NCBI RefSeq assembly: GCF_030384885.1
Contig: NZ_CP128613.1
Source: Escherichia coli
GTDB taxonomy: Bacteria; Pseudomonadota; Gammaproteobacteria; Enterobacterales; Enterobacteriaceae
Length of the DNA: 64,000 nucleotides
Reading direction: 5' to 3' (one strand)
Shown in pieces: positions 3,086 through 53,863 of the stretch. How positions within the stretch are numbered: the first letter of the stretch is position 1; each line of letters opens with the position of its first letter. The notes below the pieces were generated by a model. The model saw only the letters and a list, made by a program, of their open reading frames with translations. It was not told where the DNA came from and ran no database searches. Position numbers and translations under genes: made by a program.

Positions 3086-4108
3086 TTATAAGAAAGTAAT
3101 TACACCCTTAATCAACTCACGGTTGTTAATCACATCGCGCTCATAGGTTTCTGCCAGCGTGGCGAACGGATAGCGATGGGTTAACATCATGTCGGCAGTG
3201 ATTTTTCCTTCCGCCATCAGTCGACCGACTTTAGCGAAATCTTCCGGCGTGGCGTTGCGGCTGCCCATCATCGTCGTTTCTTTTTTATGGAATTCCGGAT
3301 CGGAGAACTGCAACTCACCTTTAAACAGACCGACAAATACCACCGTGCCGCCGTGACGAATCAGATTTACGGTGTTATTCATCGCATGTTGATTACCTGT
3401 CGCGTCGATCACTTTCTGCGCCAGCGAACCACCAAACTGCGCCCGCAGCTGCGCGTCAAAATCTTCGGCTGACGGGTCCAGCACGGGCAACTCCAGACGC
3501 GTTGCCACATGTTCTCGGCGTGCCGGACTGGTATCCGCCACCACCACCTGTGCGCCATCAGCTTTAGCGATTGCCGCCGCGCCCAGACCGATTGGCCCCG
3601 CCCCGACCACCAGCACCTGCTCGCCGGGAGCAATGGCTGCACGACGCACCGCATGTGCGCTAATAGCGAAAGGTTCAATCAATGCTGCCGCCTGCGGGTC
3701 AATACCGTCTGCGGGCAAAATGTTCGCCACCGGCACGCTCAAATACTCACTAAAACCACCATCCTGATGCACACCAATGACTGAAATTTTTTCACAGCAA
3801 TTGGTTCGACCGCTTTTACATGCCGGGCATTGCTGACAGGCAACATAAGGGATCACAGCAACTTGCTGACCATTTTTAAGATCAGCAATATTTTTACCCA
3901 GCCCAACAATCTCCCCACATATTTCATGGCCTAAAACGCGTGGATAACTAAAAAATGGTTGATTTCCACCCCAGGCATGAATATCGGTACCGCAAATCCC
4001 GACAGACTTAATTTTTATTAATGCTTCATTGTCACCCGGAATAGGTATCTCACGTTGTTTCCAGACTAATTCTTTCGGCTGCTGGCAAATTAAAACATTC
4101 ATCGTAGA
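3086..4108 (-). CDS. lgoD: L-galactonate 5-dehydrogenase (zinc-dependent medium-chain dehydrogenase)
   Basis: 346-aa ORF; start placed at MSTMNVLICQQ (340 aa); zinc-ADH motifs (GHEICGEIV, GICGTDIH); recognised as LgoD/YjjN. Confidence 0.9.
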   Translation of the reverse strand, partial: STMNVLICQQPKELVWKQREIPIPGDNEALIKIKSVGICGTDIHAWGGNQPFFSYPRVLGHEICGEIVGLGKNIADLKNGQQVAVIPYVACQQCPACKSGRTNCCEKISVIGVHQDGGFSEYLSVPVANILPADGIDPQAAALIEPFAISAHAVRRAAIAPGEQVLVVGAGPIGLGAAAIAKADGAQVVVADTSPARREHVATRLELPVLDPSAEDFDAQLRAQFGGSLAQKVIDATGNQHAMNNTVNLIRHGGTVVFVGLFKGELQFSDPEFHKKETTMMGSRNATPEDFAKVGRLMAEGKITADMMLTHRYPFATLAETYERDVINNRELIKGVITFL

Positions 4109-4249
4109 CATGATTCGGCTCTCCATTTTTTGTTGCCTTAGATATCAATGAAAATGAAAAATGGCAGCGGAACGGAAAATCTGTTTTGTGAAAACACACG
4201 CATAAAAATGTTTTAAATCGGGTTTTAATGGACTCACAAGGAGGAAAAT

Positions 4250-5164
4250 ATGAGTCGCTCACAAAATTTACGCCACAATGTGATTAACCAGGTCATTGAT
4301 GATATGGCGCGGGGTCACATCCCTTCCCCACTTCCATCGCAAAGTGCGCTGGCGGAAATGTACAACATCAGCCGCACCACAGTGCGCCATATTCTCAGCC
4401 ACTTACGCGAATGCGGCGTCTTGACGCAGGTTGGAAACGACTATGTTATTGCGCGTAAACCTGACCATGATGACGGTTTCGCCTGTACTACCGCTTCAAT
4501 GAGTGAACAAAACAAAGTGTTTGAGCAGGCTTTTTTCACGATGATAAACCAGCGCCAGTTACGCCCAGGGGAAACTTTTTCTGAACTGCAACTGGCTCGG
4601 GCCGCGGGTGTCAGCCCGGTTGTAGTAAGAGAATATCTTTTAAAATTCGGTCGTTATAATCTTATTCAGAGCGAAAAGCGCGGCCAGTGGAGCATGAAGC
4701 AATTCGATCAATCCTACGCCGAGCAGCTGTTTGAGCTACGCGAAATGCTCGAAACTCATTCACTTCAGCACTTTCTCAACCTACCTGATCATGATCCCCG
4801 CTGGCTGCAGGCGAAAACCATGCTCGAACGTCATCGGCTACTGCGTGACAACATCGGCAATAGCTTCCGCATGTTCTCGCAACTTGACAGAGATTTTCAC
4901 TCCTTACTGCTTTCAGCTGCCGATAATATCTTTTTTGATCAATCGCTTGAGATCATCTCAGTCATCTTTCATTTTCACTATCAATGGGACGAAAGCGATC
5001 TTAAACAGCGCAATATCATTGCCGTCGATGAGCATATGACCATTCTCAGCGCTCTGATTTGCCGCAGTGACCTGGATGCCACCCTTGCGCTCCGTAACCA
5101 TTTGAATTCAGCTAAACAATCAATGATTCGATCCATTAATGAGAACACGCGTTATGCTCATTAA
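4250..5164 (+). CDS. lgoR: GntR-family transcriptional regulator of L-galactonate utilisation
   Basis: 304-aa ORF with N-terminal winged-HTH and FCD-type C-terminal domain; divergent from lgoD; recognised as LgoR/YjjM. Confidence 0.9.
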   Translation: MSRSQNLRHNVINQVIDDMARGHIPSPLPSQSALAEMYNISRTTVRHILSHLRECGVLTQVGNDYVIARKPDHDDGFACTTASMSEQNKVFEQAFFTMINQRQLRPGETFSELQLARAAGVSPVVVREYLLKFGRYNLIQSEKRGQWSMKQFDQSYAEQLFELREMLETHSLQHFLNLPDHDPRWLQAKTMLERHRLLRDNIGNSFRMFSQLDRDFHSLLLSAADNIFFDQSLEIISVIFHFHYQWDESDLKQRNIIAVDEHMTILSALICRSDLDATLALRNHLNSAKQSMIRSINENTRYAH

Positions 5165-5378
5165 GTACGGATTAAAAACAGCAAACTATTAGCGGGTGCA
5201 CGGTTTTATCAAAAGATAAATACCGGAAAATTCCCGCTTACCTATGCTCACAATCAGTCGACTAAAAATGTTTTTGTGAGCGGTAGTAAAGTCCTAAAAC
5301 TTTTACCTGCCGTTAATGTCAACCTTGCGTAATGCACAATTACGTAAACAATTAAAATTATAAATACAGGAGTCCGGC

Positions 5379-6740
5379 GTGGAAAAAGAAAATATCACCC
5401 TCGATCCGCGTTCTTCATTTACTCCATCTTCGTCGGCAGATATTCCCGTGCCACCAGATGGATTAGTTCAACGCAGTACCCGAATTAAACGCATTCAAAC
5501 CACCGCCATGTTGTTATTATTTTTTGCGGCGGTAATCAATTATCTCGACCGCAGTTCACTGTCGGTAGCAAATTTAACGATTCGTGAAGAATTGGGATTA
5601 AGTGCCACCGAAATCGGCGCTTTGCTCTCCGTGTTTTCACTCGCTTACGGGATTGCGCAACTTCCTTGCGGCCCACTATTGGATCGTAAAGGCCCGCGCC
5701 TGATGCTGGGACTGGGGATGTTCTTCTGGTCACTGTTCCAGGCAATGTCTGGCATGGTGCACAGCTTTACGCAGTTCGTGTTGGTGCGTATAGGTATGGG
5801 GATTGGTGAAGCGCCGATGAACCCATGCGGTGTAAAAGTCATTAACGACTGGTTCAACATCAAAGAGCGCGGACGCCCGATGGGCTTCTTCAACGCAGCT
5901 TCTACCATTGGCGTTGCCGTAAGCCCACCGATTCTGGCGGCGATGATGCTGGTGATGGGCTGGCGCGGGATGTTTATTACCATTGGTGTGTTGGGTATTT
6001 TTCTCGCCATCGGTTGGTATATGCTCTATCGCAACCGCGAGCACGTAGAACTGACTGCCGTTGAACAAGCCTATCTCAATGCCGGTAGCGTCAATGCCCG
6101 CCGTGATCCACTCAGTTTTGCTGAATGGCGCAGCCTGTTCCGTAACCGCACAATGTGGGGAATGATGCTCGGATTCAGTGGCATCAATTACACTGCGTGG
6201 CTGTATCTGGCCTGGCTTCCTGGTTACCTGCAAACAGCCTATAATCTGGATTTAAAAAGCACAGGATTGATGGCGGCTATCCCTTTCCTGTTTGGGGCTG
6301 CCGGGATGCTGGTCAACGGTTACGTTACCGACTGGCTGGTCAAAGGGGGAATGGCTCCGATTAAAAGCCGTAAGATCTGCATTATTGCCGGGATGTTCTG
6401 TTCTGCCGCCTTTACGCTGGTCGTACCGCAAGCGACAACATCCATGACGGCGGTTCTGCTGATTGGCATGGCACTGTTCTGCATTCACTTTGCTGGAACA
6501 TCCTGCTGGGGATTGATCCATGTCGCTGTCGCTTCTCGCATGACTGCATCGGTGGGCAGTATCCAGAACTTTGCCAGCTTCATCTGCGCTTCTTTCGCGC
6601 CGATCATTACTGGTTTTATTGTCGATACCACCCACTCATTCCGTCTGGCGCTAATCATCTGCGGTTGCGTCACCGCGGCGGGTGCACTGGCATACATCTT
6701 CCTGGTTCGTCAGCCGATCAACGACCCACGTAAAGATTAA
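5379..6740 (+). CDS. lgoT: L-galactonate:H+ symporter (MFS, anion:cation symporter family)
   Basis: 453-aa ORF with GTG start; 12-TM MFS pattern; recognised as LgoT/YjjL. Confidence 0.9.
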   Translation: MEKENITLDPRSSFTPSSSADIPVPPDGLVQRSTRIKRIQTTAMLLLFFAAVINYLDRSSLSVANLTIREELGLSATEIGALLSVFSLAYGIAQLPCGPLLDRKGPRLMLGLGMFFWSLFQAMSGMVHSFTQFVLVRIGMGIGEAPMNPCGVKVINDWFNIKERGRPMGFFNAASTIGVAVSPPILAAMMLVMGWRGMFITIGVLGIFLAIGWYMLYRNREHVELTAVEQAYLNAGSVNARRDPLSFAEWRSLFRNRTMWGMMLGFSGINYTAWLYLAWLPGYLQTAYNLDLKSTGLMAAIPFLFGAAGMLVNGYVTDWLVKGGMAPIKSRKICIIAGMFCSAAFTLVVPQATTSMTAVLLIGMALFCIHFAGTSCWGLIHVAVASRMTASVGSIQNFASFICASFAPIITGFIVDTTHSFRLALIICGCVTAAGALAYIFLVRQPINDPRKD

Positions 6741-25959: not shown

Positions 25960-26045
25960 TTAGCGCGGTGCGGATGTGCGCCAACACACCCGCACCGCTA
26001 ATCACAATCCCTATTTCTAAGGAATAGTAATCATGACTGACACGC
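25960..26045 (-). ncRNA. symR: Approximate position of SymR antisense sRNA (overlaps symE 5-prime UTR and start codon)
   Basis: Placed from established knowledge of the symE/symR locus, not from a sequence signal I can delimit exactly. Confidence 0.35.
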
Positions 26046-29353: not shown

Positions 29354-30183
29354 CCAGTCATGGAAAGGCCGGTTAGCAGTCCATTCAAAAAATGCGTTCC
29401 TGTTTCATCATCTAACGGTATTGGAAACTCGCTTCGCCAGGTAGGGTGAACCTTATCAAGCTGTTGTACTGGTTCTTTGTGATTTATTAGGTTGTGAGTA
29501 AGTACTAAGGAATTGAGGTTATCAGCCATATGACTGATAAGTTCTACAGAGGTATCTTCGCTAAAAACAGTAGGCAGCGCTGATTTTTCTATGACAGCTC
29601 TTGCCAGCGAAAGGGCTGAAAAACCTGACTGCTTTGCTTGCTCATATTGTCCAAGGATCCTGGAGAAAACAGCCAGAAAGCGACTGTCTGATTCTTTGAG
29701 TAGCCGGAAAGGTAAACCACCTTCACTGAATAATGTTCCGAGAAAATTGCGTCGTTCAGATTCATAAAATCGAATTGGGCGCAGCCAGTAATCTTCCATC
29801 CCTTTCGGTACGATAGTACCAAGCTCTGTGGCGGTGAATGAAATCCCTATTTTTTTATATATAGGGTCCCACGTCCATCCGCATTGCCGTTCATAATCCC
29901 TGCGGTACCACTCAGAGCAAAAAAGAACAAAACAGGCAGCAAAGTCCCTATTACATATATTAGATTGTGATTGACCGACTGCACGGAGTAGCTGCGTTAA
30001 TTGGGTATATTCATCATTGGTTGCATGATATTCATAAAGAGGACGGCCATCCGGTTGTCTCAACCCTCTAAGATTCACAAAGTTACTTAGCCAGGAAGTA
30101 CATTTTACCCATGAAATGTATTCTGATTGACCCAAAGCAAGCTCCTTAGAGATAAAAGATACAAAAACAAAACCCCACAACAT
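29350..30183 (-). CDS. Hypothetical protein (277 aa) in the mcrC-yjiS variable slot
   Basis: ORF-track frame; AT-rich relative to flanking core genes; no obvious Shine-Dalgarno; no family recognised by eye. Confidence 0.5.
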
Positions 30184-30633
30184 TTCTAATTTGAAAGAAA
30201 ACCTTTCAGAATATTGTATAGTTACTCAGGCGGCAACAACTATTTTTTCAGGTCGATACTATAAATCAATTTTAGATAAAAATGATATCAACCATCTATT
30301 AATCACAACTCATTTATCACCTGATTTTATAATTTCAAATGAAAATAAATCTCAAACAATCAAAAAGTATTCAGTAGCTGACATTTAACTTTCCAGGATA
30401 TAAAACAATTAGAGAAACTGCACAATAGCGAATAATGAGAGTTGTAAAGTCAGTCAAAAAACACAAGTAATCACTGTGCGTTTTTTGACCGTTATCGACA
30501 TGAGTTTAAAGAGGTTAGTGAAGAAGATATTCCTGTACACTCCATACCTATTGATGAATTGTCTCGGGAAAATTTTTATAACTTAATATAAAAACATAAA
30601 AACGTTTTATTATATATAAATCTATATCCCCCC

Positions 30634-30798
30634 TCACTCCACATCCTCCCTGCGTAACCCGATATCCCTCAACCGCTCATCACTCATCTGCTGTAACACG
30701 CGTCGGGTCTGCATTTGCCGCCGCCAACGCCTCACCGCCTGCCAGAGTTGCACAAGGCCGATAAACGGCGCTTTAGCTCTGTTTTCGTGAAATTCCAT
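30634..30798 (-). CDS. yjiS: YjiS (DUF1127) small protein
   Basis: 54 aa read from the minus strand (MEFHENRAKAPFIGLVQLWQAVRRWRRQMQTRRVLQQMSDERLRDIGLRREDVE); not in the supplied ORF track because it is under 60 aa. Confidence 0.8.
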   Translation of the reverse strand: MEFHENRAKAPFIGLVQLWQAVRRWRRQMQTRRVLQQMSDERLRDIGLRREDVE

Positions 30799-30974
30799 CT
30801 GCTGCCTCCTCATCTTTCAGAGGCTTCATCATCCGCCTTCTGGCAGTTCACAATACAGATGCAAATATTAGTTTTATTTAACATACAGACAGGTTAAAAC
30901 AACATCTGCATCCGGTTTTTTAGCCTCATCTGTACCGGTTTTTCTCTCTGTATGGTCCAAATAAGGAGTACAGC

Positions 30975-50931: not shown

Positions 50932-51843
50932 ATGGATGACTGTGGTGCAGTTTTGCATAATATTGAAACAAAATGGCTTTATGATTTTCTGACCCTGGAA
51001 AAATGCCGCAACTTTTCCCAGGCGGCAGTCAGTCGCAACGTCTCACAACCCGCATTTAGCCGTCGCATCCGCGCGCTGGAACAGGCAATTGGCGTTGAAT
51101 TGTTTAACCGCCAGGTGACACCTCTGCAACTCTCGGAACAAGGGAAAATCTTCCATTCGCAGATCCGCCATCTGCTGCAACAGTTAGAGAGCAACCTTGC
51201 AGAACTGCGTGGCGGCAGCGATTACGCGCAACGTAAAATCAAGATAGCCGCTGCACACTCTCTTTCTCTCGGTCTTTTACCGTCAATTATCAGCCAGATG
51301 CCGCCGCTCTTTACCTGGGCGATTGAAGCCATTGATGTTGATGAAGCGGTCGATAAACTTCGTGAAGGGCAAAGCGACTGTATTTTTTCCTTTCATGACG
51401 AAGATTTGCTGGAAGCACCGTTTGACCACATTCGCTTATTTGAATCTCAATTGTTCCCCGTCTGCGCCAGTGACGAACACGGAGAAGCGCTTTTTAACCT
51501 CGCACAGCCACACTTTCCGTTACTGAATTACAGCCGTAACTCCTACATGGGGCGATTGATTAACCGTACCCTGACGCGCCACAGTGAGTTAAGTTTCAGC
51601 ACCTTTTTTGTCTCGTCGATGAGCGAGCTTTTAAAGCAGGTTGCCCTCGACGGCTGTGGGATTGCCTGGCTGCCGGAGTACGCCATCCAACAAGAAATTC
51701 GCAGCGGGAAGCTTATCGTTCTGAATCGGGACGAACTGGTGATCCCGATTCAGGCCTATGCATACCGGATGAATACCCGTATGAATCCCGTGGCCGAACG
51801 CTTCTGGCGCGAACTGCGCGAGCTGGAGATTGTGCTTAGCTGA
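50932..51843 (+). CDS. hypT: LysR-family regulator HypT (hypochlorite-responsive; formerly YjiE)
   Basis: 303-aa ORF with N-terminal LysR HTH ([29 protein letters not shown]); recognised as YjiE/HypT. Confidence 0.9.
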
Positions 51844-52228
51844 CATTCTCCAGCGTCGCACTACACCAACCGCCACTATCCCAGACCAGATCATACGTTA
51901 GCGGTTCATCGTCGTGGTGCAGCATTATCTCAAGGCTGATCGCCAGCGTGTGGCTGTACGCTTCTTTCAAATTGACCTGCAACGCCGCAATCCGAGGCTC
52001 ATGAAATAAAAGTGCAGAACGTAGTTGACGGCAATACCAGCTCTGGAGATGTTTGTCGCTCTGGTTATGCACTTGCCACTCAGGCATACCTGAAACAAGT
52101 AATGAAGGTAATGCCGAATGAGGAGAATTAAAAAGAGTGAGGAGATCGCTGCATACCGATTTACGCAGTGATAACGTTTTATTGCCTGATATTTCAGGTG
52201 AAACAGCCTGAAGTGATTGGCGCATCAT
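51836..52228 (-). CDS. iraD: Anti-adaptor protein IraD (inhibitor of RssB-mediated RpoS degradation)
   Basis: 130 aa from [15 protein letters not shown]...; 3-prime end overlaps hypT convergently; start set from the track protein by codon arithmetic. Confidence 0.88.
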
Positions 52229-52901
52229 TTTGCGCACTCCTGACGTTTAGCAACATATGTGGCTTGCCCTGAATACCGGGCACCACTGTATTGATGCTCA
52301 TTTTCCATAGCCATTCCCTTTTGTTCATTACATCCATGTCAGTCTGAGACAGGCCTGAATCCTGTCAGCAAAGTATAAAACCTTACTTGCCTATGAATAT
52401 CTACTGACTTTTCAGGAAAAAAGTCATGATTTGATAAAAATCATCAAACTCAAAAAAAAACTGCTAGTATATTCTGAATATTCCGAATAGTTACGTAGAT
52501 GAAAATACTTGTCACCGCCGCTACTTAATCCCGGCGGGAGATTATTTATTTTCGTATAATCAACCATGTATTATTTGAAACAATTAGTTTGTAAATAATA
52601 TAAATTGATAACATATCAAATACATCAAAAACACCATTCACAGGCATTATTAATATAGACATCAATATAACAACATCAAATTCCAATTAGTAATAAGATA
52701 TGCTTTTAAATTGCATGCAAATAATTTTAAATGAGCGTTTTTTGATACTTTAGAGTGTTTCCCACCCTTTAATATCACTGTGTAGAGTTGATATCACTAC
52801 AACAGAAACATGCATGTCATTTGTTTACTTCTCTTTTTACTACAGAAAAATTTATCTATTTTTCTAAAACATCAGTGAAATACTCATAAAAGGTTATTAA
52901 T

Positions 52902-53723
52902 ATGTCTATGCCAATAAGCAATGCCGCTAACAACAAAATTTTTACAGATAATCATTTCGCTCATCATCCAAATGCCGATAAAGAATTAGCAGACAGTATG
53001 CCCTCGCATCTTAACTCGGAAAACATCTATGTCAGACCTCTTGTTCGTGGAAATAACCATAACTATGATGGGGGAAGTGTTGTCGAAATTAGACAGCTTG
53101 AAATTGGTAAACAAGGGTATTGGCCATTCAATTACGTAACAGCCGCATGTAAAGAATCCGATGGTATTTCAATCACAGGAAACATACGCTGTGGTACCTG
53201 GAAGGCCAGCTCAGTATTAGACGGAATATACGGTGGAGTATGTAAAAAGGCGCATGTTTCCGCAGCGTTAGAAGCTGGTCTACGGTTTAACCTAACTATG
53301 GATTCTAAAATTCCAAACACGATACATGAAATAACCCTAGGCCCTGGTTGCAATGTTCCAGGCTATGCGGGAACCACGATAGGATACCTGGCAACACTCC
53401 CCCTTGAAAAGGTTGAAAATTGGCAAGATACAACACTGCCAAGAATTGATATCTATATTGATCAGATAATGACTGTGTCAGGGGTAGCAAATTCTTCCGG
53501 ATTCGCCCTTGCTGCATTACTTAATGCTAATATTGGAATGGGAAATGACCCAATAATTGGTATAGAAGCCTATCCTGGTACCGCTGAGATCCACGCTAAG
53601 ATTGGATATAAAGTTATCCCCGGGGATGAAAATGCACATGTCAAACGTATGACTCTGCAACCGTCATCTCTCCCAGAACTGTTTGAATTAAAAAATGGTG
53701 AATGGAATTATATTGGTAAATAA
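52902..53723 (+). CDS. yjiC: YjiC, uncharacterised protein
   Basis: 273-aa ORF after a roughly 670-bp AT-rich intergenic region; AT-rich codon usage; recognised as YjiC by position and sequence. Confidence 0.8.
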   Translation: MSMPISNAANNKIFTDNHFAHHPNADKELADSMPSHLNSENIYVRPLVRGNNHNYDGGSVVEIRQLEIGKQGYWPFNYVTAACKESDGISITGNIRCGTWKASSVLDGIYGGVCKKAHVSAALEAGLRFNLTMDSKIPNTIHEITLGPGCNVPGYAGTTIGYLATLPLEKVENWQDTTLPRIDIYIDQIMTVSGVANSSGFALAALLNANIGMGNDPIIGIEAYPGTAEIHAKIGYKVIPGDENAHVKRMTLQPSSLPELFELKNGEWNYIGK

Positions 53724-53863
53724 CCACTGGGAAGAATGAGTACTAACATTCAGGTTATACAGATATTTAAACAATACCCTGCAATTTATAAAGTAATACT
53801 CATTGCGACTTCTTAATTTAAGAAAGCGCAAGGAACGTTTACCCTTGCGCTTATCATAATAAG

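Follow-up and report, generated by a model that had tools for sequence, protein, structure and literature searches.

We found that the gap between iraD (−) and yjiC (+) in a 64-kb window (the whole stretch of 64,000 nucleotides of Escherichia coli DNA that was analysed) is almost certainly the region, already characterised, that controls iraD and, in the opposite direction, yjiC. No evidence contradicting this explanation was found. The promoter and leader biology of the gap is already published in detail, and the idea that the gap holds a small RNA is unsupported. What our analysis adds is evolutionary: the stress-inducible promoter P1 and the small gene ytiC lie in a low-GC block common only to E. 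coli and E. albertii, and every Escherichia lineage that carries iraD has kept the P2/IdlP/CsrA core. Since IraD stabilises RpoS during DNA damage and stationary-phase entry, its control region integrates ppGpp, DnaA/replication status, SspA and CsrA signals.

The gap extends exactly from 52229 to 52901 (673 bp), with the iraD ATG at 52228 (−) and the yjiC ATG at 52902 (+); its 672-bp counterpart in K-12 was called unusually large in published work. The initial annotation had described about 670 bp between the two genes that lacked any ORF of at least 60 aa and was strongly AT-rich. Its coordinates were exact and the ORF list agreed, the longest ORFs inside the gap being 47, 47 and 46 aa. At the 60-aa threshold, 52238–52901 (664 nt) was the biggest ORF-free run in the window, followed by one of 378 nt. 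The AT-richness was equally evident, as the GC content was 31.6% for the gap and 27.7% for its distal 394 nt compared with 49.4% for the entire window, and the GC minimum of the window in 400-nt segments (25.5%, beginning at 52541) fell within the gap. A lack of long ORFs is to be expected of AT-rich sequence alone; the non-random features of the gap are its length and its composition. The picture of a gap without ORFs holds for ORFs of at least 60 aa, but the gap is gene-bearing: idlP, ytiD and ytiC, all of which had been missed, are small CDS that RefSeq places on the same strand as iraD in strain 2013C-4282 and in K-12 (NC_000913.3). Identity across the gap was 100% to strain 2013C-4282 and 97.6% to K-12, the leader of which contains no indel. 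Of 5426 complete E. coli genomes, 4903 contained the gap DNA and 4905 contained iraD. Across these genomes the gap was nearer to the window than iraD was, being 95–99% identical in 4899 genomes, versus 90–95% for iraD in 4327.

Table 1. Features of the iraD–yjiC region, in window coordinates; distances with a minus sign are relative to the iraD start codon
Feature	Position	Strand	Description
iraD CDS	51836..52228	-	Anti-adapter protein IraD, 130 aa; ORF and RefSeq annotation in the 100%-identical strain
iraD SD-sequestering hairpin	52206..52244	-	Predicted by single-sequence and 7-sequence consensus folds; described in PMC5574718
idlP (= ORF27)	52225..52308	-	27-aa iraD leader peptide; translation and RefSeq
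Fifth GGA	52238-52240	-	-12; iraD SD, inside the SD hairpin; CsrA does not bind according to PMC5574718
DnaA box TTTTCCATA ('box -81')	52301..52309	+	Exact motif; overlaps idlP start codon; function according to 10.1101/2021.05.20.444958
CsrA BS4 GGA	52304-52306	-	-78; at idlP start codon; label assigned by order
CsrA BS3 GGA	52315-52317	-	-89; idlP SD; tied to the text of PMC5574718
CsrA BS2 GGA	52333-52335	-	-107; label assigned by order
CsrA BS1 GGA	52360-52362	-	-134; 3 nt from P2 5′ end; tied to the text of PMC5574718
iraD P2	52365..52377	-	-10 TATACT 52372-52377; TSS 52365 (-137); weak -35
ytiD (= ORF47, b4721)	52424..52567	-	47-aa small ORF, part of the P1-specific leader; ORF list and RefSeq
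ytiC (b4720)	52546..52647	-	33-aa small ORF; RefSeq 38 aa, to 52662, in the present strain
iraD P1	52645..52679	-	-35 TTGATG 52674-52679; 16-nt spacer; -10 TATATT 52652-52657; TSS 52645
Distal AT-rich tract, P1 to yjiC start	52680..52901	.	About 27% GC; none of the mapped features falls here
yjiC CDS	52902..53723	+	DUF2686, 273 aa; Pfam PF10887, E = 2.7e-113; RefSeq
Low-GC lineage-specific block	52508..53863	.	1356 bp, GC 28-41%; distal intergenic DNA, yjiC and the yjiC-uxuR spacer

The published iraD transcription start sites are P1 at −417 and P2 at −137 (10.1101/2021.05.20.444958). Taking the A of the iraD ATG (52228) as +1, −417 converts to 52645, −137 to 52365 and −81 to 52309. The iraD start sites were reportedly first mapped by Merrikh 2009 (J Bacteriol). 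Promoter hexamers were assigned by mapping the published K-12 positions onto the window, the experiments having been carried out in K-12, which is another strain. The P1 match was also obtained by an independent consensus scan, and the mapped start site falls 7 nt past its −10 element. The P1 −35 and −10 hexamers and the P2 −10 hexamer are unchanged in K-12. The P2 start site is an A located 3 nt ahead of the BS1 GGA, in agreement with Park et al. 2017 (PMC5574718). The initial annotation had placed one or more iraD promoters inside the gap; as it supposed, P1 and P2 both land on matching −10 elements, and sigma-70-type elements fit both mapped start sites. P1 was described as the principal promoter during late log and stationary phase, its activity depending on ppGpp and being induced by AZT and when cells pass into stationary phase, and P2 as active throughout all growth phases and used by sigma-70 or sigma-S (10.1101/2021.05.20.444958). 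According to the same study, both promoters respond to ppGpp and AZT and both are repressed by DnaA-ATP, partly via the box at −81, and SspA likewise acts on the iraD control region. The window sequence of this box, TTTTCCATA, is identical to the published box and fits TTWTNCACA at 8 of 9 positions.

Inspection of the region upstream of P2 revealed several further symmetric sequences. A tandem TATTC[G/A]GAA-TATTC[A/G]GAA is located at 52470–52489, about 105–125 nt upstream of the P2 start site, in which each unit is a TTCNGAA palindrome. The tandem is kept in six of the seven aligned sequences, with a single unit in E. albertii, and could be a candidate transcription-factor site. Closer to P2, a GACTTTT-N6-AAAAGTC dyad at 52406–52425 spans −41 to −60 from the start site and has a shorter CTTTT...AAAAG version in other lineages. 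Another dyad, TTTGAT-N7-ATCAAA at 52427–52445, contains FNR-like half-sites with a non-canonical spacing; FNR appears as an activator of idlP in one published regulator table.

IraD of the present strain matched the NCBIfam equivalog NF010726 at 285 bits as well as Pfam GPW_gp25, and it is 94% identical to K-12 IraD. At the other end of the gene, iraD (end 51836) and the convergent hypT (+, end 51843) share 8 bp at their 3′ ends (51836–51843), leaving no space for a terminator of either gene. The iraD leader is 417 nt when transcribed from P1 and 137 nt from P2, and it contains CsrA sites, the DnaA box and translated upstream ORFs; the suggestion that the gap had room for an extended regulatory leader was therefore well founded. 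The idlP TGA (52225–52227) overlaps the iraD ATG (52226–52228) as ATGA, and the idlP start, its stop and this overlap are invariant in all seven aligned Escherichia lineages. Park 2017 (PMC5574718) reports that translational coupling between IdlP and iraD was demonstrated experimentally in K-12, that the iraD leader contains four CsrA sites, and that CsrA binding and repression were established there in K-12 by gel shift, footprinting, toeprinting and reporter fusions. We found five GGA motifs downstream of the P2 start site, the same number as published, and the K-12 sequence is the same across all of them. The BS2 and BS3 GGA motifs are present in seven of seven lineages, and the BS1 GGA is restricted to E. 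coli. All but one of the pairs in the predicted hairpin that sequesters the iraD SD sequence are unchanged across the seven Escherichia sequences. A compensatory change was found in only 1 of 31 predicted leader pairs in the seven-sequence consensus fold, and the entire P2 leader folds no better than shuffled sequence (z = −0.65). Because covariation is nearly absent, the case for the SD hairpin rests on conservation together with published work.

Our IraD genome scan gave five non-coli Escherichia loci in which IraD is 76–79% identical, E. albertii and E. whittamii among them. When the gap was compared across these loci, a conservation profile of the kind that the initial annotation had proposed as a check gave a divided outcome. 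The proximal 279 bp (52229–52507), containing P2 and the leader, aligned in five of five loci with about 74–82% identity, but the distal 394 bp were found in E. coli and E. albertii only. The segment from −184 to −145 relative to the iraD ATG, which lies upstream of the P2 start site and includes the −10 element, is 95% identical to E. albertii. In contrast to this proximal part, the block at 52508–53863 is missing from four of the five non-coli loci, where about 130–155 bp of unmatched sequence replaces it between uxuR and the iraD upstream region. Because the distal 394 bp are confined to E. coli and E. albertii, the low-GC DNA that carries P1, ytiC and the 5′ half of ytiD is lineage-specific. 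Even in E. albertii, identity over the distal part is no more than 50–57% (54% for 52680–52901), and neither the P1 hexamers nor the ytiD frame is kept. A 63-aa hydrophobic ORF does occur there in the frame and position of ytiC, despite DNA identity of about 55%. The ytiD gene, which straddles the block junction, is absent from the four lineages other than E. coli and E. albertii.

From this distribution we infer that the proximal 279 bp would be an older conserved core, whereas the distal block together with yjiC is most simply explained as acquired DNA. Low GC content and published foreign-DNA calls favour gain over loss, in a comparison that covered Escherichia loci, no iraD-carrying outgroup having been found. 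We tested whether the distal block came from a mobile element and rejected this, as no phage matched it and the plasmid collection gave matches to chromosome-sized E. coli records only; we also found no paralogous copy of the distal tract in E. coli genomes. The promoter of yjiC has to be located within the gap, and the 52680–52901 tract presumably holds it together with the 5′ UTR. On the + strand of this tract no sigma-70-like match was detected at the scan threshold, and we found no mapped yjiC start site. YjiC of the present strain and YjiC of K-12 are only 69% identical: the last approximately 90 residues agree at about 95%, and the first two thirds of the protein have strongly diverged. 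Since the adjoining gap is 97.6% identical, divergence sets in abruptly at the yjiC start codon. In E. coli 2018-18.25PC (locus 4081–5830), two IS1 copies replace the leader beyond about −125 as well as yjiC, such that P1, P2, ytiC and ytiD are lost and idlP-iraD adjoins IS1. The scan also returned a 605-bp contig labelled Bacillus coahuilensis m4-4 with IraD 94% identical to that of E. coli, which almost certainly stems from contamination of that assembly with E. coli DNA.

Our model of the gap as a control region combines these elements. Transcription of iraD would start at P1 (52645) and P2 (52365), and DnaA-ATP would repress both, partly via 52301–52309. The P1 transcript would carry a 417-nt leader bearing three translated small ORFs, ytiC, ytiD and idlP. 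By binding GGA sites that surround the idlP ribosome-binding site, CsrA would block idlP translation; because it acts at this step, CsrA would repress IraD, and RpoS stability through IraD, indirectly. P1, ytiC and the 5′ half of ytiD would belong with yjiC to a low-GC block bound by H-NS, and the AT-richness and unusual length of the gap are proposed to result from the acquisition of this distal block.

Two other explanations of the distal half assign it a different main role. The ORF called ORF23 by Park is ytiC read from an internal start at Met12. According to that study (PMC5574718), lacZ fusions to ORF23 and ORF47, which lie between P1 and P2, were expressed, and start-to-stop mutations left iraD expression unchanged. 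VanOrsdel et al. 2018 (PMC6001520) tabulated the 33-aa sORF of this gap, there called ytiB, as one of the small proteins that they newly identified. YtiC matched Pfam PF23685 (YtiC-like) over its full length (1–33; E = 1.8e-25, 88.8 bits versus a gathering cut-off of 27), YtiD matched no Pfam or NCBIfam model, and none of idlP, ytiD and ytiC is represented by a model in NCBIfam. The annotated ytiC ATG (52645–52647) overlaps the published P1 start site, which is the G at 52645. As a consequence, an RNA that begins at the mapped P1 start site cannot give the 33-aa form of YtiC. Either the start site is 2 nt further upstream, giving a leaderless mRNA, or another promoter is used, or Met12 is the true start. 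The distal half could mainly encode YtiC and YtiD as small proteins with roles of their own, with iraD regulation being secondary. The tabulated sORF, the expression of both fusions, the Pfam family of YtiC and the persistence of the hydrophobic ORF in E. albertii all speak for such roles. We nevertheless consider this unlikely, given that the start-to-stop mutations did not affect iraD expression, that the mapped P1 transcript does not accommodate the 33-aa YtiC, and that ytiD has no family model, is in another frame in E. albertii and is missing from four lineages; in addition, the present strain and K-12 differ at 5 of the 17 N-terminal residues of YtiD. Less probable still is that the distal AT-rich tract is inert foreign DNA silenced by H-NS and serving for spacing only. 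Its GC content, its inclusion with yjiC in a lineage-specific block, its low identity in E. albertii and the listing of an H-NS-bound promoter island overlapping predicted foreign genes (PMC3661553) would all suit inert DNA. However, P1 lies within the tract, and reporter fusions show it to be active and subject to regulation (PMC5574718; 10.1101/2021.05.20.444958), which already refutes inertness for 52645–52679. In the AZT RNA-seq data of a PNAS 2024 study, ytiC was the top-induced gene in the genome (260-fold), followed by 33-fold for ytiD, 18-fold for idlP, 14-fold for iraD and 11-fold for yjiC. The same study describes ytiC, ytiD, idlP and iraD as jointly induced by AZT and cotranscribed. 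Moreover, the tract is 95–99% identical in 4760 E. coli genomes, and in most of them it is nearer to the window than iraD is.

The initial annotation had also suggested that the gap is large enough to hold a small RNA, a suggestion that found no support. Such an RNA could have a gene of its own. Alternatively, premature termination or processing ahead of ytiD could release the ytiC-containing 5′ end of the P1 transcript as a short stable RNA. Apart from the sufficient length of the gap, the second form would fit the steep drop in AZT induction along the P1 leader (260-, 33-, 18- and 14-fold for ytiC, ytiD, idlP and iraD), and the difference between ytiC and ytiD is not attributable to P2, which lies downstream of ytiD. 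If true, a short ytiC RNA would account for the 260-fold induction as against the 33-, 18- and 14-fold values, although this gradient may also reflect differing basal read counts. A hairpin followed by GUAUUUUCAU at 52513–52545 (−), within ytiD, could in principle mark the end of such a fragment. We rejected this hairpin as a terminator or attenuator on either strand, as it has an 11-nt loop and a poor U-tract, and its stem is broken in K-12. Its 6-bp GC stem is specific to the present strain, being created by five clustered substitutions in the 5′ part of ytiD; the K-12 sequence contains two mismatches and adopts a different fold. Neither an own promoter with an intrinsic terminator nor a family match, either of which would identify a trans-acting small RNA, was found in the gap. 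No Rfam family matched the gap at gathering score in a search of the 64-kb window, and at E values up to 10 only chance-level matches to snoRNA and CRISPR-repeat models were obtained (E 0.18–4.1, none below 0.1). The terminator scan gave no terminator-like site on either strand of the gap, and the curated K-12 annotation (NC_000913.3) contains no ncRNA there. In the text-format supplementary files of a 3′-end mapping study (PMC7815308), iraD, ytiC, ytiD and idlP are not named, and a literature search combining iraD with RIL-seq, Term-seq, dRNA-seq and CLASH gave no iraD paper among the matches listed. Furthermore, four of the lineages lack the distal half, and in E. albertii its identity is only about 55%. 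We therefore regard a small regulatory RNA of either kind as very improbable. There is likewise only a slim chance that after replication stress most P1 transcripts stop or are cut between ytiC and ytiD, yielding an abundant RNA of about 100–150 nt that is possibly both YtiC-coding and regulatory.

Among known systems, the K-12 iraD promoter and leader region is the same locus, with the five GGA motifs, the DnaA box, the ATGA overlap and the SD hairpin identical to ours. The present strain differs from K-12 in the IdlP substitutions Y12C and T17A, and in an upstream ATG that lengthens the ytiC ORF to 38 aa. The K-12 yjiC(−)/iraD(+) gap is a listed 'promoter island' of 526 bp that interacts with H-NS and overlaps predicted foreign genes (Panyukov and Ozoline 2013, PMC3661553). 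The low GC content and lineage-restricted block found here agree with that class, for which H-NS binding is taken from the literature. The gap contained no excess of promoter-like sites (3 compared with 5.1 ± 1.7 in dinucleotide shuffles), as judged by a simple sigma-70 consensus scan, a criterion that differs from that of the authors of PMC3661553. The leader also resembles the sites that give rise to 5′ UTR-derived small RNAs by premature termination (Adams et al. 2021, PMC7815308), in being long, translated and stress-induced, with induction declining along it. It differs from those sites in having neither an intrinsic terminator nor conserved structure, and its genes are unnamed in the text-format supplements of that study.

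Several minor observations concern the surroundings of the gap. A supplementary table of the 3′-end paper (PMC7815308) lists K-12 position 4555483 (+), which is antisense to yjiC and downstream of uxuR; this entry may represent uxuR read-through ending within yjiC. The sole Rfam family detected at gathering score in the window was the SymR antitoxin RNA (RF01809, 93 bits) at 25962–26038. Further low-GC stretches were observed at 30001–30974, 38661–39940 and 40661–41340, with 400-nt minima of 28.5–30.5%, and these included runs without an ORF of at least 100 aa of 791 nt (30184–30974) and 570 nt (38661–39230).
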